Assembly (NCBI RefSeq): GCF_054482595.1
Contig: NZ_CM137008.1
Direction: 5' to 3' (one strand)
DNA length: 64,000 nt
Shown here: positions 12,549-55,790 of the stretch, piece by piece
How positions within the stretch are numbered: position 1 is the stretch's first letter
How the letters are laid out: every line of letters begins with the position of its first letter
Program-made: the position numbers and the translations under genes
Notes under the pieces: generated by a model
The model's input: only the letters and a program-made list of their open reading frames with translations
What the model was told of the DNA's origin: nothing
Database searches by the model: none

Positions 12549-12580
12549 AGCCCGATGATAAATCCATCGGGCTATTTTTA
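12549..12580 (+). terminator. Rho-independent terminator
   Basis: Perfect 9-bp stem AGCCCGATG/CATCGGGCT, 7-nt loop, followed by ATTTTTATT; abuts the narP stop. Confidence 0.6.
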
Positions 12581-13225
12581 TTGTGCCCCGCGTTGTTGCA
12601 GGAACAGAATGGTGGCTGCCACGCGTGAGCGGACATTGAGTTTGCGCAGCAGATTGCGAATATGTACTTTTACTGTCTGCTCGGAAATATTCAACACCGA
12701 GGCAATCTGTTTATTTGACAGCCCCTGTGCCAGCTCGTGCAGAACATCCAGCTCGCGCTCCGTCAGCACGCTGAAGGGATCTTCTTCCGCGCCAAACATT
12801 TCACGTTCATGTAAGTACTGATTGACGCGTTCGCTAAAGACTTTGCTGCCTTTCGCTCCGGCACGAATCGCTTCCAGCAAAACTTCCGGGTCGCTGTCTT
12901 TCAACAGATAACCGTCTGCGCCTGCGTCTATCAGCGCAAAGACATCGCTGGAGGCATCTGATACGGTCAGGATAATAATTTGCGCGGTAACGCCATCCCT
13001 GCGCAAGGCATTGAGGGTATCCAGGCCACTCATACCTTTCATATTGAGATCCAGCAAGATCACGTCGATATCCAGTCTATTAGCCAGATCGATCGCGCTC
13101 GCGCCGTCGCCTGCTTCGGCGACCACTTCAAAGCCAGGATCAAGCTCCAGTAACTGACGAACACCGCGTCGCATAAGTGGATGATCATCCACAATCATCA
13201 CCTGAAAAGGCGTTGCTTCAGGCAT
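12578..13225 (-). CDS. narP: Nitrate/nitrite response regulator NarP
   Basis: Start set at MPEATPFQVMIVDDHP (215 aa); receiver domain plus LuxR-type HTH; recognised as NarP. Confidence 0.94.
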   Translation of the reverse strand: MPEATPFQVMIVDDHPLMRRGVRQLLELDPGFEVVAEAGDGASAIDLANRLDIDVILLDLNMKGMSGLDTLNALRRDGVTAQIIILTVSDASSDVFALIDAGADGYLLKDSDPEVLLEAIRAGAKGSKVFSERVNQYLHEREMFGAEEDPFSVLTERELDVLHELAQGLSNKQIASVLNISEQTVKVHIRNLLRKLNVRSRVAATILFLQQRGAQ

Positions 13226-13544
13226 AGTAGTCTCCTGAGGTTTTATTAGAATCATTATGTTTGAGCGTAGCGTTGGTATCGCTACCAGGCGCGTGAATGT
13301 TACCCCATTTTATGTATGGACATGTAGTGAAAACTACAACCTTGTCGTTCGTTTTGGCATCATTTTCATTATAAAGACGGAATTTTGCATCAGCTTCTCA
13401 TCAAGAAAAACAACTAAAAAATCAATCACAATACTTGTGCATTTCTTTAAACAGTTTTTAAAAACTGATTCCGGGTATGGAGCTATGGGTATTTTCTGTA
13501 CCCAATGCTTTTAACAGCAATTAATTTCATAGGATGAAAGCTCA

Positions 13545-16136
13545 ATGCATCAATCTGGTTCTGTTTCTCTTTGTCGTTCCGCAATATCTGTTCTGGTGGC
13601 TACAGCGTTATATTCACCCATAGCATTGGCATCAACAGTTGAGTATGGTGAGACAGTTGATGGTGTTGTCCTGGAAAAAGATATCCAGCTGGTTTATGGG
13701 ACCGCCAATAATACGAAAATCAATCCTGGCGGAGAACAGCATATTAAAGAATTTGGTATAAGTAGTAATACTGAAATTAACGGCGGGTATCAGTACATTG
13801 AAATGAATGGCACCGCAGAATACTCCGTATTAAATGATGGTTATCAAATTGTTCAAATGGGTGGCGCGGCAAACCAGACTACCCTCAATAATGGTGTGCT
13901 ACAGGTTTATGGCGCAGCGAATGATCCCACGATTAAAGGCGGGCGCTTAATCGTTGAAAAAGATGGGATTACCGTCCTTGCCGCTATCGAAAAGGGAGGA
14001 TTACTGGAGGTTAAAGAGGGGGGATTAGCGATTGCGGTAGATCAGAAAGCAGGCGGTGCTATTAAAGCAACCACGCGGGTCATGGAGGTATTCGGAACAA
14101 ACCGTCTCGGTCAGTTCGATATCAAGAATGGAATTGCAAACAATATGCTGTTGGAAAACGGCGGAAGTTTGCGAGTTGAAGAAAATGACTTCGCTTATAA
14201 TACTACTGTAGATAGTGGCGGCTTACTGGAGGTTATGGATGGCGGGACTGCAACTGGCGTTGATAAAAAAGCAGGCGGAAAATTAATTGTCTCAACGAAT
14301 GCGCTGGAAGTGAGTGGTACAAACAGTAAAGGCCAATTTAGTATAAAAGATGGTGTGTCAAAAAATTATGAACTGGATGATGGTTCCGGGCTTATTGTTA
14401 TGGAGGACACGCAGGCCATTGACACTATCCTTGATGAGCATGCCACTATGCAATCGCTGGGAAAGGATACTGGTACGAGAGTGCAGGCAAATGCGGTATA
14501 TGATCTCGGTCGATCAGATCAGAATGGAAGTATAACGTATTCCTCTAAAGCCATCTCTGAAAATATGGTTATCAACAATGGCCGCGCTAACGTCTGGGCT
14601 GGCACAATGGTTAACGTTTCAGTCAGAGGGAATGATGGCATTCTTGAGGTCATGAAGCCGCAAATAAATTATGCACCCGCAATGTTGGTGGGTAAGGTAG
14701 TGGTTTCTGAGGGCGCTTCTTTTAGAACGCATGGTGCCGTGGATACCAGCAAAGCGGACGTTTCGCTCGAAAATAGCGTATGGACCATCATTGCCGATAT
14801 CACTACGACGAACCAAAACACCCTCCTCAACTTAGCCAACCTTGCGATGTCTGACGCAAATGTGATTATGATGGATGAGCCAGTGACTCGTTCATCAGTG
14901 ACGGCAAGTGCGGAAAATTTCATTACGTTGACCACCAATACCCTGTCGGGAAACGGCAATTTTTATATGCGTACCGATATGGCTAATCATCAGAGCGATC
15001 AGCTCAACGTCACCGGTCAGGCAACAGGTGATTTCAAAATATTCGTGACGGACACCGGTGCCAGCCCGGCAGCAGGAGATAGCCTTACACTGGTAACAAC
15101 GGGCGGCGGTGATGCTGCATTTACGTTGGGCAATGCCGGAGGCGTTGTTGATATCGGTACGTATGAATATACCTTGCTGGATAATGGTAACCATAGCTGG
15201 AGTCTGGCAGAGAATCGCGCGCAAATTACCCCTTCAACCACTGATGTGCTGAATATGGCGGCCGCACAACCGCTGGTATTTGATGCAGAACTGGACACCG
15301 TGCGTGAGCGTCTTGGTAGCGTAAAAGGCGTTAGTTACGATACGGCGATGTGGAGTTCGGCAATTAACACCCGCAACAACGTGACCACTGATGCGGGAGC
15401 TGGTTTTGAGCAAACATTGACGGGCCTGACGCTCGGTATCGATAGCCGTTTCTCCCGTGAAGAAAGCAGCACAATTCGCGGCTTGTTCTTTGGTTACTCT
15501 CATTCTGATATTGGTTTTGATCGCGGCGGAAAAGGTAATATCGATAGCTATACCCTGGGGGCTTATGCCGGTTGGGAGCATCAGAACGGTGCCTATGTTG
15601 ATGGGGTGGTGAAAGTTGACCGTTTTGCCAACACCATCCATGGCAAGATGAGTAATGGGACAACAGCGTTTGGCGATTACAATAGTAACGGCGCGGGTGC
15701 TCATGTTGAGAGCGGGTTCCGTTGGGTTGACGGATTGTGGAGTGTTAGACCCTATCTGGCCTTTACCGGCTTTACCACAGATGGTCAGGACTACACGTTA
15801 TCAAACGGCATGCGCGCGGACGTGGGAAATACCCGGATATTACGCGCTGAAGCGGGAACGGCGGTAAGCTATCACATGGACCTGCAAAACGGTACGACGC
15901 TGGAACCCTGGCTGAAAGCCGCCGTACGTCAGGAATACGCCGATTCTAACCAGGTGAAAGTTAATGACGATGGCAAATTTAATAATGATGTGGCTGGAAC
16001 CCGTGGCGTTTATCAGGCTGGGATAAGGTCATCGTTTACCCCGACGTTAAGCGGTCATTTGTCAGTCAGCTATGGCAATGGCGCAGGGGTAGAATCGCCG
16101 TGGAATACTCAGGCGGGTGTGGTCTGGACGTTCTGA
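13545..16136 (+). CDS. yejO: Autotransporter adhesin YejO (intact)
   Basis: 863-aa ORF with signal peptide, repetitive passenger domain and C-terminal beta-barrel ending in W-T-F; recognised as yejO. Confidence 0.85.
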   Translation: MHQSGSVSLCRSAISVLVATALYSPIALASTVEYGETVDGVVLEKDIQLVYGTANNTKINPGGEQHIKEFGISSNTEINGGYQYIEMNGTAEYSVLNDGYQIVQMGGAANQTTLNNGVLQVYGAANDPTIKGGRLIVEKDGITVLAAIEKGGLLEVKEGGLAIAVDQKAGGAIKATTRVMEVFGTNRLGQFDIKNGIANNMLLENGGSLRVEENDFAYNTTVDSGGLLEVMDGGTATGVDKKAGGKLIVSTNALEVSGTNSKGQFSIKDGVSKNYELDDGSGLIVMEDTQAIDTILDEHATMQSLGKDTGTRVQANAVYDLGRSDQNGSITYSSKAISENMVINNGRANVWAGTMVNVSVRGNDGILEVMKPQINYAPAMLVGKVVVSEGASFRTHGAVDTSKADVSLENSVWTIIADITTTNQNTLLNLANLAMSDANVIMMDEPVTRSSVTASAENFITLTTNTLSGNGNFYMRTDMANHQSDQLNVTGQATGDFKIFVTDTGASPAAGDSLTLVTTGGGDAAFTLGNAGGVVDIGTYEYTLLDNGNHSWSLAENRAQITPSTTDVLNMAAAQPLVFDAELDTVRERLGSVKGVSYDTAMWSSAINTRNNVTTDAGAGFEQTLTGLTLGIDSRFSREESSTIRGLFFGYSHSDIGFDRGGKGNIDSYTLGAYAGWEHQNGAYVDGVVKVDRFANTIHGKMSNGTTAFGDYNSNGAGAHVESGFRWVDGLWSVRPYLAFTGFTTDGQDYTLSNGMRADVGNTRILRAEAGTAVSYHMDLQNGTTLEPWLKAAVRQEYADSNQVKVNDDGKFNNDVAGTRGVYQAGIRSSFTPTLSGHLSVSYGNGAGVESPWNTQAGVVWTF

Positions 16137-16197: not shown

Positions 16198-16228
16198 AAA
16201 AAAACCAACCGTAAGGGTTGGTTTTTTT
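16198..16228. terminator. Bidirectional rho-independent terminator (original proL/yejO terminator)
   Basis: Stem CCAACC/GGTTGG with loop GTAAG, flanked by an A-run upstream and T-run downstream. Confidence 0.65.
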
Positions 16229-16285
16229 GGGATTTTTGGTCGGCACGAGAGGATTTGAACCTCCGACCCCCGACACCCCATGACG
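16229..16285. repeat. attL: 57-bp direct repeat containing the displaced 3' 48 nt of tRNA-Pro
   Basis: Identical base-for-base to 55706..55762; positions 16237..16284 are the reverse complement of the tRNA-Pro 3' end including CCA. Confidence 0.85.
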
Positions 16286-16537
16286 CCGCTTGAAAAATGC
16301 TGAGAACCGCGCAATCGCTGGTGGTAGGTACTATTCGCATGTATAAACAAACAGTGCTTTTTTAGCAAAATCCGTTCTATATACATCAATGACTTAGGTG
16401 GTGGTTTCTCCCCATGCCACAAGTAGTGTTGAGCTTTACTGAAGCCACTCCATTGGCCTCTACATGGAAACTAACAAGAAAATGTCAGTTGAAGGAGTTT
16501 TATAAATTCATGTTTTCTTCTTCAGGACAACCCATCA

Positions 16538-16566
16538 CCCGCAGGCACCGCCTGCGGGAATTTTGC
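16538..16566 (+). terminator. Rho-independent terminator
   Basis: Stem CCCGCAGG/CCTGCGGG with loop CACCG, followed by AATTTTG. Confidence 0.5.
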
Positions 16567-16654
16567 GACTGTGTTCGTTTTAAATTATAGATGCATCACC
16601 TGATATTCGTGACATACAAACTATGCATTAGCCAGATCTATACTGGATAAGTAT

Positions 16655-18406
16655 TCATTCTAATGCCTTCTCAATGTTTGTATTTATTTCTGATAAACTA
16701 TTAATTACACCGTCAAATACAAAATCAAGAGCGTTACTATAACCAATTGCTAAAGTAGCTGAATCAAATCCTAGTTTTGCTAAATGCTCAATTGATTTGT
16801 TTACTGCTTCATGAGCTTCAGCATTTCTTAAATCATTATTTATAAAAAACGATGCCACTTTTTTATTTTGAGTTTTAAAATCTGCAAATTCTGTGGCGTG
16901 CTTAAGTACAGATGAGTCTTCATTCTGTTCAATAATTGGCTCGATAAGGTTAAGTAATGATTGAAGTAGTTTCAGAGTTTGGAATTTTTCGATGTCTGAT
17001 TTATTAACACCCATTGCAATTAATAATTTTTTTAAAGAGCCTGATTTAATCTTATTTAAAATCTCATTAATAGTCTTACATCTATTCAAAAAATCCGGTT
17101 CTTGCATGTCATTTGGCGCAACAAATGCTAGCTTCTGCAATACTGGATAGTTAGAGATTCCTTCTGATTCTAACTCTGTGCGATTAATTTCTAAAATGTC
17201 TGCATTGGATAAAGTAACACCAATACTTCTACCAAGTGCTACAAGATTATCGCTAAGTCTTGCTAGTTCTCTAGCGAATTTAAATGTTTTAGATACAATA
17301 TGTTCTCCGCTTAAATCATTTTCAGTGATTTGGTTTGGATCCTTAGCATAATCAAAAACATGATAAACCTCCTCTTCAGGAATTCCTCGATACAGCTCAT
17401 AAAACGGAATTCTGACTAAGTTTCTTCCAACCCTGATGCAATCCCTAAAGGACCATTGTCCACCGTAGCTTGGAGCAACCCTATAAGAATAGCCGTCATA
17501 AAATGGAATAGCATCATATGAAGAATCTTTTTCATATTTAGTAAGGAAAGAGTCATTAACCAAGACATATTCATTGTTTCTGATGTCTTTGGCTCTTGAA
17601 CTCGTCATAGGAGTATCATATCCCGGCCATATTAATTCATCTATATTTAATTTTTTACAAAGTTCAGGCTGAACAGATTGTACACTTCCCCATGCTTGCA
17701 ATAATATATTGTCCCCATTATCTACTATCTCAAAATCTATCCAAGGCAAATCAAACTTGAAATGTTTTGACCCAGACAATAAGTTAATTACTTCCGTCGT
17801 TCTTTGAATACGTGCTTCATAGTAAAAAACACGTACACCAACATAATTTCTCATCCAGAGGTATTTTCTTAGATAATCATTACGCATTGTCCATTTTACA
17901 TCTTTATTACTTCTAAAGTAATACTCGCTTGACACATCCCCTTGTGCGACTCCATAATCGGGCAAGCTTACCTCATCGAAAATGACTTTTTGCTCAGTGT
18001 CACCTATAAGTCTGGGTTTTAGACCAAGCATCATCCATACATCTTCAGCTAAAAAAAATGAAAAGTGAGAACTATCACCCCAAGAAGCTACAATATACTT
18101 ATAACCTGAAATTGATAAACTATAATCTCTTGCTCCGCCTTTAGACCTACAGTCAGGAGTCGAAAATGAAACTAAACCATTAGTAGACTCCTGGAGAACT
18201 TTGATATTATTGATATCTTCTTGTGGTACGGTAGCCATTGTCATATGAGCACACTCATGATTATCTTTAAAAAGATTTTTTTCGTATCTATGTGTGACAA
18301 TGACCTCTTTCTGTGGATTAGTAATATCCTCTATAGATAATAAATCTTTAAGACCTTGAGGGATCTGATCTACTGGTAAAGGTAATTGTGATATATAGTC
18401 AATCAT
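16655..18406 (-). CDS. Hypothetical 583-aa protein (prophage cargo between attL and int)
   Basis: Long uninterrupted ORF in an AT-rich segment with its own AT-rich upstream region; no motif I can assign (no Walker A, HNH or similar). Confidence 0.6.
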   Translation of the reverse strand: MIDYISQLPLPVDQIPQGLKDLLSIEDITNPQKEVIVTHRYEKNLFKDNHECAHMTMATVPQEDINNIKVLQESTNGLVSFSTPDCRSKGGARDYSLSISGYKYIVASWGDSSHFSFFLAEDVWMMLGLKPRLIGDTEQKVIFDEVSLPDYGVAQGDVSSEYYFRSNKDVKWTMRNDYLRKYLWMRNYVGVRVFYYEARIQRTTEVINLLSGSKHFKFDLPWIDFEIVDNGDNILLQAWGSVQSVQPELCKKLNIDELIWPGYDTPMTSSRAKDIRNNEYVLVNDSFLTKYEKDSSYDAIPFYDGYSYRVAPSYGGQWSFRDCIRVGRNLVRIPFYELYRGIPEEEVYHVFDYAKDPNQITENDLSGEHIVSKTFKFARELARLSDNLVALGRSIGVTLSNADILEINRTELESEGISNYPVLQKLAFVAPNDMQEPDFLNRCKTINEILNKIKSGSLKKLLIAMGVNKSDIEKFQTLKLLQSLLNLIEPIIEQNEDSSVLKHATEFADFKTQNKKVASFFINNDLRNAEAHEAVNKSIEHLAKLGFDSATLAIGYSNALDFVFDGVINSLSEINTNIEKALE

Positions 18407-18728
18407 TATAATTTATGCCTTCTATGCTCAGTATTAAATTAAATATTAAATCGAAGTCATCCCCTTGGCAACCTAAATCGTTTGCTGCTAGTACTTCAGT
18501 GTAAGATTAATTATGCAATAGTTTGCAATTGAAATATCTTAAGCTGTAGAAAAATCAATCATACTGATACCTTTTACTTAAGTTTCACTCCTAGGCATGA
18601 TGAACGCTTCCTCAAGATACAGTATTACGCTATGCCTGCAACTTTCACTTGTGGCATAGTAAACCTTTCAATTTAGGTTTAGCCCTGTATAGTAGTAATG
18701 CACGCTTCAAATCTGAGCTAATAAAATT

Positions 18729-19913
18729 TTAACTGGCTTTAATTTCTCCATGTGGTACGACAACCCAATCAATATGGTTTTGCGTATAAATCTTGGTTGA
18801 CTTGGAGTCGCTGTGCGCCATTCGTGCTTGCGGATCGATACCTTGCTGATCGAAAAGATACGCTGCTAATGCTCTAATTTCGTGAAAGGTTGGTCTTTCA
18901 TCTATCGGTAGATTGTCGCATAAACCTAGCTTGTCACGTGTGGCTGAAAACGACCGGCTCAAATAGTCCGGTGCAACTTGAGTAGGGTGTGAAACCTCTT
19001 TGCTGCGTTTAACCTGCCGTTCAGGGATCCTGTGAACGACAAACGGACTGGCCACATTATCTCGGCTATCATCAATTATTCGTTTCAACTCTTCACCAAT
19101 CGGTATTGCAACGTGTGATGCCTCTTTTTTTTGCACTTTTTGCCTGTGGATGTAAAGCGTCCCATATATGCCATTTTGTGGTTGTTCGAACCAGACACAT
19201 CCACATATACCGTCTTTAGGTTCGCGAATTGAGTAACGGATTCGCGATACTTCGAGTCGTGCATGTGTAGTCTGCAATGCTAGGTCCATTGCTGTTCTTA
19301 ACCATGGTGCAGCGGCCTGCCTGATAGCTATAAAATGCTCGAGTGACAGGCGCCGTCTTTTCTTCTCATCAGTCCTACGCATTTTTTTTCTGATGGCCGG
19401 GTTATCCAGCATTAGTGATTCATCGACCGCATAAGAGAACAACTTTTTAAGGAAGCTGACCTTTCTGTTCTGCACATTTGCGGATGCGCAGGCATGATAT
19501 TTATTGATGTAGGTATTAACGTGTTCAAGTGCAATATCGCATGCTGGAACATTTACGAAAAACGCTTTTACGCGTAGAGCGTCATTTTTCCAGTCATCTA
19601 AGGTGCTCTGGGAAGGACGTTCGTCTTCGATAATCCGGGTCATTATGTGATCAACATGTTCAGCAAATGGTTTTGCTTCTCCGATAACACCGCCAGATTC
19701 TCTAATAAGATTATCTACTGATGGAGATAATTCTGGTCGCATCCTCAGGTTGTACTCTCTGGCGATTGCAATGGCTATTGCCCTATCCTTACCTATATTT
19801 TTCTTCTTTCCGGTAATAAGTGTGAATTTATAAACACCTCGATCTTTATCAAAAATCAGATAATCAGGAAGATGTCTGTATTCTTTTTTACGTGGCCTTG
19901 CCGCCATGGTCAC
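18729..19913 (-). CDS. int: Tyrosine-type site-specific integrase (lambda Int family)
   Basis: 394 aa; C-terminal catalytic motifs HEIRAL (HxxR) and KIYTQNH (Tyr nucleophile); lies near attL. Confidence 0.88.
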   Translation of the reverse strand: MTMAARPRKKEYRHLPDYLIFDKDRGVYKFTLITGKKKNIGKDRAIAIAIAREYNLRMRPELSPSVDNLIRESGGVIGEAKPFAEHVDHIMTRIIEDERPSQSTLDDWKNDALRVKAFFVNVPACDIALEHVNTYINKYHACASANVQNRKVSFLKKLFSYAVDESLMLDNPAIRKKMRRTDEKKRRRLSLEHFIAIRQAAAPWLRTAMDLALQTTHARLEVSRIRYSIREPKDGICGCVWFEQPQNGIYGTLYIHRQKVQKKEASHVAIPIGEELKRIIDDSRDNVASPFVVHRIPERQVKRSKEVSHPTQVAPDYLSRSFSATRDKLGLCDNLPIDERPTFHEIRALAAYLFDQQGIDPQARMAHSDSKSTKIYTQNHIDWVVVPHGEIKAS

Positions 19914-21017: not shown

Positions 21018-21512
21018 ATGACCAGAGACGATTATAAATTTTATATTCACTACTCTTATGTATTGGAGAAGATGAATTACACGTTGTTAACTCGTATTGA
21101 TAAATTAATAACGTTGATGTTAATCGTTCTCGGTTTTTCAGTTTTCGCCCCGTACAGTAATTTATTTATTTTCGGTTTGTTTGTTGCCGTACTTTCGGTT
21201 CTTCAGTTGGTCTATCAGTTCGGCCAGGAGGCTGGGATGTCTAAAGAACAAGCGAGGCATTACAAAAGACTGCTGATTGAGTCTGATACTCTTTCTGAAG
21301 ATCAGTTGCAAGCTAGGTATTTAAAAATCCAAGATACCGATAGTAATCCATGGAAATCACTTGAACGAGCGGCTTTCATTCGGGCCTGCATTTTTGCTGG
21401 TGTTCCAACTAAGTACGATCTAACAACCAAAGAAAAATTTATTGCTTGGTGTGCGGGAGATCTACCTCTAGAGAATGAACTAACGGATATTAATGATGAC
21501 CAACAAGCATAA
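21018..21512 (+). CDS. Small membrane protein with two predicted TM helices (moron; possible abortive-infection/superinfection-exclusion effector)
   Basis: 164-aa ORF; two hydrophobic segments (LITLMLIVLGFSVFAP and LFIFGLFVAVLSVLQLVY) then a charged soluble C-terminus; AT-rich; opposite strand to int/xis/cI. Confidence 0.6.
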   Translation: MTRDDYKFYIHYSYVLEKMNYTLLTRIDKLITLMLIVLGFSVFAPYSNLFIFGLFVAVLSVLQLVYQFGQEAGMSKEQARHYKRLLIESDTLSEDQLQARYLKIQDTDSNPWKSLERAAFIRACIFAGVPTKYDLTTKEKFIAWCAGDLPLENELTDINDDQQA

Positions 21513-21854: not shown

Positions 21855-22529
21855 TTAGGCTTTGATTTTGTATCTTCTTGGTTTTCCTGAGAAAATCACA
21901 GTACCAATTATAGAGCAATTACCGTTGATCTTAATGTAAGGCTCAGGCCAGTTTGGGTTTAACGCTTTGAGATAACGCTGTGTCCCATCTTCTATCAACC
22001 TTTTGAAGGTGGTTTCACCTGTATCGTGCATCAATGCAATAACGTCGTCACCGTGGCAGGCAGGTACTTCAGGATCGACAAAAATCATGTCTCCCGGGCG
22101 GTACTCATCAATCATTGAATCACCTATCACCCGCAAGATATAAGTCATTTCCCCACAGGGTACAGGGCAGGGATACGTTTCTGCTGTGCTCAAATCAACC
22201 TCAGAATATCCAACTTCTTTCCATGCTCCGGCCTGTACCCATGATATGACAGGGACTAATGTGATTTGTTTATTAGTGATTGAAACATCAGGTTTTTTTG
22301 TGATGTTCGTTGTCTGGTGTTCTTGATCGAGCCATCCGACAGGCAGGTCGAAACATTTTTCGATGTGTCGTGCCATGCTGTCACCGATATTTTTAGTAGC
22401 ACCATCTCCCATAAACCTGCTGGTTTGGGTTGGCTCGCGATCAATCATAGTGGCAAAGGAAGAATTCCCGCCAACACCATCTCTCAGTTTTCTGGCGTTA
22501 GACCGCCGGATGTCATGGATTGTTTTCAT
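21855..22529 (-). CDS. Phage cI-like repressor (HTH plus S24 LexA-type peptidase domain)
   Basis: 224 aa; C-terminal part carries the S24 pattern (VIGDSM ... KR, Ser/Lys dyad context); divergent from the cro-like gene. Confidence 0.8.
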   Translation of the reverse strand: MKTIHDIRRSNARKLRDGVGGNSSFATMIDREPTQTSRFMGDGATKNIGDSMARHIEKCFDLPVGWLDQEHQTTNITKKPDVSITNKQITLVPVISWVQAGAWKEVGYSEVDLSTAETYPCPVPCGEMTYILRVIGDSMIDEYRPGDMIFVDPEVPACHGDDVIALMHDTGETTFKRLIEDGTQRYLKALNPNWPEPYIKINGNCSIIGTVIFSGKPRRYKIKA

Positions 22530-23770: not shown

Positions 23771-24701
23771 ATTAACCGGCTATGTATGGGATGGTTGCGC
23801 TGCGTCAGGCATGAAGTTATCCAGCGTGGCAATTATGGCCCGCCTGGCTGATTTCAGTAATGACGAAGGTGTGTGCTGGCCATCAATTGAAACCATTGCC
23901 CGCCAGATTGGCGCGGGGATGAGCACCGTCAGAACGGCTATCGCACGGCTGGAAGCAGAAGGCTGGTTAACTCGTAAGGCGCGTCGCCAGGGTAACCGCA
24001 ATGCGTCGAATGTTTATCAGCTTAACGTTGCGAAGCTTCAGGCAGCGGCATTTTCTCAACTGTCAGATTCTGACCCGTCAAAATCTGACGCATCAAAATC
24101 TGACCCGTCAAAATTTGATGCGTCGAAATCTGGCAAAAAAGCGGGTTTTCACCCGTCAGAATCTGGCGGGGATCCGTCAGTAAAATCAAAACATGATCCG
24201 TCAGATAAAAAAAACTCTCGTCCGGACGCTTCGCAACCGGACACGCAGATGGATGAACAGGATTTTTTAACTCGCCATCCTGATGCGGTTGTATTCAGCC
24301 CTAAAAAGCGCCAGTGGGGGACGCAGGATGATTTGACCTGCGCACAGTGGCTCTGGAAAAAAATCATCGCCCTGTACGAGCAGGCTGCCGAATGTGACGG
24401 CGAGGTGGTTCGTCCCAAAGAACCGAACTGGACAGCCTGGGCAAACGAAATTCGCCTGATGTGTGTGCAGGATGGTCGTACTCACAAACAAATCTGCGAG
24501 ATGTACAGCCGCGTCAGCCGCGATCCGTTCTGGTGCCGTAACGTGCTCAGCCCGTCGAAGCTGCGGGAAAAATGGGATGAGCTTTCCCTGCGCTTATCGC
24601 CGTCCGTAAGCACGTACACCGAAAAACGCGAAGACCCGTACTTCAAATCCAGTTACGACAACGTGGACTACAGCCAGATCCCGGCAGGATTCAGGGGGTG
24701 A
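23760..24701 (+). CDS. Phage replication initiation protein (N-terminal HTH, central SKSD repeat linker, DnaT-like C-terminus)
   Basis: 313 aa; N-terminal winged-helix-like region (IARQIGAGMSTVRTAIARLEAEGWL); repeat peptide DPSKSDASKSDPSKFDASKSG encoded by DNA iterons; position equivalent to lambda O. Confidence 0.7.
   Translation: MSTKLTGYVWDGCAASGMKLSSVAIMARLADFSNDEGVCWPSIETIARQIGAGMSTVRTAIARLEAEGWLTRKARRQGNRNASNVYQLNVAKLQAAAFSQLSDSDPSKSDASKSDPSKFDASKSGKKAGFHPSESGGDPSVKSKHDPSDKKNSRPDASQPDTQMDEQDFLTRHPDAVVFSPKKRQWGTQDDLTCAQWLWKKIIALYEQAAECDGEVVRPKEPNWTAWANEIRLMCVQDGRTHKQICEMYSRVSRDPFWCRNVLSPSKLREKWDELSLRLSPSVSTYTEKREDPYFKSSYDNVDYSQIPAGFRG
24069..24128. repeat. Four tandem 15-bp iterons (TCTGACNCNTCAAAA) inside the replication gene, putative ori
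   Basis: Direct repeats, each with internal dyad GTCA-AAAT-CTGAC, followed by further CCGTCAG motifs and an A-rich tract; same layout as lambda ori inside O. Confidence 0.55.
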
Positions 24702-55673: not shown

Positions 55674-55703
55674 AAAAAAACCAGCCATAATAGGCTGGTT
55701 TTT
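55674..55703. terminator. Bidirectional rho-independent terminator (phage-borne homologue of the proL terminator)
   Basis: Stem CCAGCC/GGCTGG with loop ATAATA flanked by A-run and T-run; lies just 3' of the restored tRNA-Pro. Confidence 0.65.
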
Positions 55704-55705
55704 AA

Positions 55706-55762
55706 GGGATTTTTGGTCGGCACGAGAGGATTTGAACCTCCGACCCCCGACACCCCATGACG
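55706..55762. repeat. attR: 57-bp direct repeat (overlaps 3' part of intact proL)
   Basis: Identical to 16229..16285. Confidence 0.85.
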
Positions 55763-55790
55763 GTGCGCTACCAGGCTGCGCTACGTGCCG
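55714..55790 (-). tRNA. proL: tRNA-Pro (anticodon GGG)
   Basis: 77 nt; reverse complement reads CGGCACGTAGCGCAGCCTGGTAGCGCACCGTCATGGGGTGTCGGGGGTCGGAGGTTCAAATCCTCTCGTGCCGACCA with T-loop GGTTCAAATCC and CCA end. Confidence 0.92.

Follow-up and report, generated by a model that had tools for sequence, protein, structure and literature searches.

A gene of 583 codons at one end of an Escherichia coli prophage encodes a protein that, by alignment and predicted fold, carries an invariant and correctly placed HEPN RNase motif. The gene is horizontally acquired cargo and belongs to a family that is widespread, mobile and sporadic. Because the family joins this invariant motif to a predicted beta-rich N-terminal domain, the gene is most likely a single-gene anti-phage system. 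That it works in the lysogen as a stand-alone sensor-HEPN RNase of the ApeA-like kind, providing anti-phage defence or abortive infection, appears on balance probable from the sequence, the structural model and the analogy to known systems.

The window, a stretch of 64,000 nucleotides from contig NZ_CM137008.1 (assembly GCF_054482595.1), is E. coli chromosome, with narP at 12578-13255 and an autotransporter gene of the yejO type at 13545-16136. A 70-nt direct repeat was found at 16216-16285 and 55693-55762, with 96% identity between the copies and the last 57 nt identical. The int-proximal copy duplicates the 3' part of tRNA-Pro (proL) and the bases downstream of it, and the second copy overlaps the tRNA-Pro(ggg) gene, which is intact at the far prophage end (proL, 55714-55790, minus strand). 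Since this att repeat duplicates the 3' part of tRNA-Pro, it sets the limits of a 39.5-kb lambdoid prophage that is integrated at proL beside narP and yejO. Inward from the left att copy follow the 583-aa open reading frame, a 322-bp spacer, int, small xis-side genes and the gene of a cI/LexA-like repressor (21855-22529). The int gene (18729-19913, minus strand) encodes a tyrosine integrase with an Arm DNA-binding domain, as annotated by RefSeq in the 99.9%-identical locus of strain 50EVA. The GC content is 49.4% for the prophage, 43.7% for int and 51-54% for the host flanks.

Further features were observed in and around the prophage. At 24048-24170, a 30-nt unit (TCAAAATCTGAC-type) is present in six overlapping copies with a spacing of 15 bp; these iteron-like repeats are probably the replication origin of the prophage, within its replication-gene region. 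The segment 20451-20912 is a GC-rich patch (~52%) with open reading frames overlapping on both strands, and its counterpart in the 50EVA locus is annotated as two frameshifted partial pseudogenes. A second AT-rich open reading frame (~38% GC; 21018-21512, plus strand) lies between the xis-side genes and the repressor gene and encodes 164 residues with hydrophobic helices. It is kept in related prophages (L015, 2895-3389), had no match in Pfam or PADLOC and is possibly a further moron or exclusion gene. In E. coli 50EVA (NZ_CP138412; L001, 1-7631), a second integrase-bearing island is inserted in tandem at proL just outside the left end of the prophage and contains ABC-three-component-system genes and several large hypothetical genes.

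The complete coding sequence of the 583-aa protein extends from 16655 to 18406 on the minus strand, with the stop codon at 16655-16657, and the product is 100% identical to cluster P0001. It is full-length relative to its homologues, and the start codon is backed by the alignment with their N-termini. At the base composition of the gene (34% GC), an open frame of 583 codons would occur by chance with a probability of ~1e-19. The coordinates, the alignment and the GC content (33.8%) confirmed the preliminary description of an AT-rich gene placed between int and att and co-directional with int. The gene is located downstream of int, and no terminator-like site was found between the two. The same description gave the gene its own AT-rich upstream region of roughly 320 bp. 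This holds for the spacer as such, which is 322 bp long (18407-18728, minus strand) with 33.5% GC, but not for a promoter: a weak sigma-70-like site is present at 18471-18443, and such matches are not above the frequency in shuffled sequences. The spacer contained no Rfam family and no open reading frame of 30 or more residues.

The region between int and att was compared with related proL prophages that have the same int at 86-96% nucleotide identity. In blastn alignments to four of them, whose int is 86-95% identical, a phage-side att arm of ~129 bp (16286-16414) is conserved, the homology is lost at 16414/16415 and it returns at 18677-18742, at the int stop codon. The segment in between (16415-18676) is a variable cargo cassette of 2.26 kb and 34.5% GC, in place of which the related prophages have other genes. 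The slot spans 974, 1185, ~1214, ~1335, 3026 or 3803 bp elsewhere, and these size classes recur across dozens of genomes in an E. coli-wide search. At least six other cargoes were seen in it (L009-L012, L023 and L024): a 239-aa gene in GE3, genes of 66 and 283 aa in XB2, a 289-aa gene in E203449, genes of 118 and 256 aa in strain 100181, a DUF2971 gene with remnants in O25b:H4, and a DUF4760 gene with a split AbiLi-like ATPase in strain 8178. PADLOC recognised one of the six, the DUF2971 cargo, as its candidate PDC-S31, and had no match to the remaining ones; another neighbourhood has AbiLi-like genes. The comparison that had been proposed to see whether the slot is variable thus gave a clear answer: the int-att slot is a real recombination hotspot with sharp borders. 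Since six other, uncharacterised cargoes were seen in it, the slot of the proL prophages would be a usable hunting ground for further cargo if the function of the 583-aa protein is confirmed.

The 583-aa cargo was present in 2 of 5426 complete E. coli genomes, 107 of which have most of the int region. In draft genomes with the prophage, the identical protein is always encoded at this position, adjoining the same int, even when the early region of the prophage is different. A decayed locus (L021, GCA_002965705.1, 2526-7752) has lost the prophage and int and kept the identical 583-aa gene, whose neighbours there, between yejM and narP, are an IS3-type transposase gene and the type IV restriction gene of GmrSD.

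Homologues are numerous, and the term orphan, under which the protein was introduced, no longer applies. A word-indexed search gave 333 homologous clusters at 90% identity, the best 120 of which are nearly all 582-610 aa long, and an exhaustive search gave 306 homologous representatives at 50% identity, most of them of equal length. A second subfamily of the same length is 21-28% identical to the query. The hosts include Enterobacter, Pectobacterium, Yersinia, Serratia, Vibrio, Shewanella, Ferrimonas, Pseudomonas, Paracoccus, Paraburkholderia and Bacteroides fragilis; the >90% cluster of the query itself was found in Escherichia, Enterobacter and Citrobacter. NCBI names all family members "hypothetical", and a literature search for WP_192954900 gave no match. 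The names in UniProt are inconsistent, among them "BpiB05", "EF-hand domain-containing protein" (B. fragilis), "Histidyl-tRNA synthetase (Fragment)", "Terminase" and "ApeA N-terminal domain-containing protein".

The genomic contexts differ from one homologue to the next. One is in a P4-like satellite of Enterobacter with a D5 primase, AlpA and an integrase, one among the transfer genes of an ICE, and one in the structural module of a Paracoccus prophage in the opposite orientation; a Pseudomonas homologue adjoins a gene for a Ppl-like ATPase, and further homologues are in Vibrio islands, on plasmids and at prophage edges in IMG/VR. In that collection, 13 viral contigs have relatives, 9 of which lie <4 kb from the contig end, and these adjoin tail-fibre or polymerase cargo. 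Between contexts, the common part is the coding sequence alone, with ~69-70% nucleotide identity. None of the 50,697 deposited phage genomes has the gene, and a core function in phages was rejected for this reason.

No conserved partner or antitoxin gene was found, and the neighbours vary in every context examined. This bears on the possibility that the protein is an HEPN RNase toxin in the service of the mobile element, whether by addiction, by stabilising it or by attacking elements or cells that compete with it, with a regulation that does not depend on infection. Toxin-antitoxin systems commonly use an HEPN domain as their toxin (PMC3710099), the sequence evidence for an HEPN effector would fit a toxin equally well, and the gene is found on ICE, satellite, plasmids and prophages alike. 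Against this reading, no conserved antitoxin gene adjoins the gene, and the flanks contained no small open reading frame, repeat array or Rfam RNA that could be an RNA antitoxin or a small partner. The large conserved N-terminal domain is also typical of single-protein sensor-effector defences (ApeA, Tha, DARNA). We therefore consider a toxin serving its element an unlikely explanation. In the Enterobacter satellite (L002, 7277-7783), a 168-aa gene with a weak Pfam match to MtlR, of the HEPN superfamily, precedes the homologue by 218 bp in the same orientation; it is absent beside other homologues.

The protein was modelled with AlphaFold2 from 41 homologues (pLDDT 85.8), and conservation was counted in 231 full-length relatives with 21-100% identity. 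The model predicts two parts. Residues 1-355 (17342-18406, minus strand) form a beta-rich, ApeA-NTD1-like domain, a putative sensor, and residues 356-583 (16658-17341, minus strand) form an all-helical HEPN-like domain, assigned from the AlphaFold2 secondary structure, the Foldseek matches and the conserved residues R442, R527 and H532. Although the preliminary description could assign no motif, there is a single R-x4-6-H in the whole protein, RNAEAH at residues 527-532 (16811-16828, minus strand), which is putatively catalytic. HEPN RNases work without metal from a composite active site in a dimer. [quoted passage not shown] In the model, the domain is all-alpha, and the motif is placed where the helix 515-531 ends at its C-terminal side and a loop begins. 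Four helices are candidates for the HEPN core (370-394, 436-450, 515-531 and 557-582), and helical inserts separate them.

Both R527 and H532 are kept in 231 of 231 relatives, down to 21% identity, and the residue after the arginine is N or Q in 150 of them. W260, D285, W318 and R325 are likewise invariant, and L129, D144 and R442 are kept in 230 of the 231. The invariant or nearly invariant aromatic residues are W109, W260, W318 and Y339, and the corresponding acidic residues are D144, D285 and E292. For the conserved upstream acidic residue of HEPN helix 2 (E-x3-[KR]), the query has the candidate E448-ILN-K452; E448 is kept in only 150 of the 231 relatives, and in the second subfamily the glutamate is found three positions later.

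Searches with profiles were less informative. The query gave nothing significant against PADLOC, NCBIfam, PHROGs and Pfam, and 104 relatives (63 and 41) scanned singly against Pfam matched no ApeA or HEPN family. Two weak hints of an HEPN type were obtained, the Cas13d HEPN region at E 0.014 as the sole match of 10 distant relatives in PADLOC, and MtlR at E 0.045 in Pfam. Profile searches of the PDB with full-length, C-domain and N-domain alignments returned solely chance matches (designed repeat proteins, ACP and TnpX), and the query was recognised by no HEPN profile or solved HEPN structure. The structural comparison proposed earlier was more productive. Foldseek against AFDB50 found the family itself and then full-length matches with 10-17% identity, E values of 1e-16 to 1e-22 and a probability of 1.0. 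The name "ApeA N-terminal domain-containing protein" is frequent among the latter, and one match, with E 3e-17, is called "Apea-like HEPN domain-containing protein".

That no HEPN-family profile detects the protein would also suit a quite different role, in which the R-x4-H is non-catalytic and the protein either counteracts defences or is an accessory protein of the phage with a structural or regulatory task; all functional conclusions are drawn from a predicted structure and a six-residue motif. Such a role has to be set against the invariance of the arginine and histidine in all 231 sequences, the correct placement of the motif in the predicted fold, the Foldseek tie to Apea-like HEPN proteins and the absence of the gene from the deposited phage genomes. 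We give this reading little credence.

A hydrolase was considered as well. The UniProt name "BpiB05" is attached to a 70%-identical relative in Pectobacterium parmentieri, and it would make the protein a quorum-quenching enzyme, an N-acyl-homoserine-lactone hydrolase that modulates the quorum sensing of the host or the community, with the acidic residues of the N-terminal domain as a metal-dependent site. The conservation of D144, D285 and E292 would be consistent with such a site. The original abstract on BpiB05 reportedly mentions a likeness to hypothetical proteins from two taxa in which the 583-aa family has members, Bacteroides fragilis and Burkholderia. The query has, on the other hand, no HxHxDH motif and no match to the alpha/beta-hydrolases, dienelactone hydrolases or metallo-beta-lactamases, and no hydrolase fold was among its structural neighbours. 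BpiB05 itself is a 587-aa, 70-kDa protein from a soil metagenome with a reported metal-dependent degradation of 3-oxo-C8-HSL (Bijtenhoorn et al. 2011; reviews PMC3355433, PMC3794736). Its length fits the family, and a homology to it is supported by this length and a transferred name only. A lactonase would leave unexplained the invariant R-x4-H in a helical domain and the residence in cargo slots of mobile elements, and the phenotypes of BpiB05 over-expression (less motility, pyocyanin and biofilm) could equally stem from a leaky RNase toxin. A quorum-quenching function of the 583-aa protein is hence very doubtful, and if the immune role is confirmed, the published quorum-quenching assignment of BpiB05 needs re-examination.

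For the favoured sensor-HEPN RNase, we propose a mechanism in which the RNase activity, the oligomerisation, the trigger and the anti-phage role are all inferred. The protein would be made constitutively in the lysogen and be inactive. When another phage infects the cell, the beta-rich N-terminal domain of the ApeA-NTD1 type would bind an infection cue. Two kinds of cue are conceivable, a protein of the phage, on the model of the SeAvs3-like fold, and a ligand derived from nucleic acid that occupies a conserved pocket, on the model of ApeA. Binding of the cue would switch on the C-terminal HEPN domain. In a dimer or a higher oligomer, two R527/H532 motifs would be juxtaposed and RNA would be cleaved, by analogy in the anticodon loops of tRNAs, and this cleavage would stop translation and the growth of the phage.

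The earlier suggestion of an anti-phage or abortive-infection cargo is in line with the variable slot, the invariant HEPN motif, the ApeA-like architecture, the lack of a partner and the sporadic occurrence on mobile elements, whereas the check with PADLOC went against it, as the gene is not recognised. If the function is confirmed, a family of >300 sequence clusters in Proteobacteria and Bacteroides would count as a single-gene immune system; at present it is labelled "hypothetical" everywhere, and PADLOC, Pfam and NCBIfam all miss it.

Among the known systems, Tha-1 and HepS provide precedents as prophage-encoded HEPN abortive-infection proteins that are expressed in the lysogen and activated by proteins of the incoming phage (PMC11087260, PMC13043305). 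Like the 583-aa gene, they are accessory genes of prophages that encode single proteins with an R-x4-H HEPN effector, and in Tha-1 too, the HEPN domain (RNSIMH) is C-terminal and comes after a part that could not be assigned. They differ in their much smaller size (301 aa for Tha-1, <250 aa for HepS) and in that their triggers are tail proteins; a relation of the query to either in sequence or fold was not detected.

The predicted N-terminal domain has an apparent and unique resemblance to the terminase-sensing STAND defence protein SeAvs3 (PDB 8DGC), with 7% sequence identity and no match found at the sequence level. A STAND NTPase, Walker A, TPR domain and Cap4 nuclease are all missing from the query, in contrast to SeAvs3. 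According to a recent preprint, SeAvs3 and EcAvs2 have in common a "C-terminal sensor" that is rich in beta strands and binds the terminase ATPase. Because this sensor is beta-rich and Cap4 nuclease, P-loop NTPase and TPR structures are absent from the list of structural neighbours of the query, the matched region of SeAvs3 is presumably the C-terminal sensor. There is a precedent for non-STAND effectors, including an HEPN-like protein, that reuse Avs sensors. It is thus conceivable, though rather unlikely, that the ApeA-NTD1-type domain and the beta-rich terminase sensor at the C-terminus of Avs2/Avs3 are homologous and that the family is a STAND-free pattern-recognition receptor which couples the direct sensing of a conserved phage protein, possibly the large terminase, to an HEPN RNase. 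In that case, BpiB05 would belong to a family of immune RNases, and its assignment as an "AHL lactonase" would be mistaken. The likeness to SeAvs3 suggests that Avs-type sensor modules may be reused outside STAND proteins, and the conserved charged residues of the N-terminal domain together with R442 would fit a ligand pocket of the ApeA style equally well.

The closest described architecture is that of ApeA-NTD1, a domain of ~300 aa that is mostly beta, has conserved aromatic residues and is fused to an Apea-type HEPN domain (Anantharaman et al. 2013, PMC3710099). The query shares the mostly beta N-terminal domain, the conserved aromatic residues and the C-terminal HEPN domain that keeps the R-x4-6-H, but neither it nor any of the 104 relatives matched Pfam ApeA_NTD1 or HEPN_Apea. 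Five family members in AFDB50, 19-39% identical to the query, nevertheless bear the ApeA N-terminal name in UniProt. The architecture has been described computationally only, and no functional test of it was found in the searched literature.

ApeA itself is a single-gene defence of ~600 aa with the catalytic residues R521 in Ec1ApeA and R502 in Ec2ApeA and the HEPN domain of Ec2ApeA at 335-583. It forms decamers or dodecamers, cleaves tRNA anticodon loops or phage RNA and is activated by ligands in a conserved pocket; in cryo-EM, its monomers are mainly alpha-helical, with a catenin-like N domain and a PafA-like Mid domain (bioRxiv 10.64898/2026.01.26.701840, 10.64898/2026.03.20.713152). The differences lie in residues 1-355 of the query, which are predicted to be mostly beta in place of the helical N and Mid domains, and in the profile searches, where no PADLOC or Pfam ApeA model recognised the query; the PADLOC ApeA HMM had zero matches to it and ten diverse relatives at E <= 1 to 10. 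Since the N-terminal parts of ApeA are alpha-helical and the ApeA HMMs miss the family, we file the protein, known here from its sequence and predicted fold, as ApeA-like and not as a demonstrated member of ApeA. The two have in common a single gene of ~580-600 aa on mobile elements with no partner gene, an N-terminal region with no assignable function and a C-terminal HEPN domain with inserts around the core helices and the catalytic arginine near 500-527 (R527 of 583 in the query). In conclusion, the 583-aa protein most likely works like ApeA, with the architecture of ApeA-NTD1 and HEPN.
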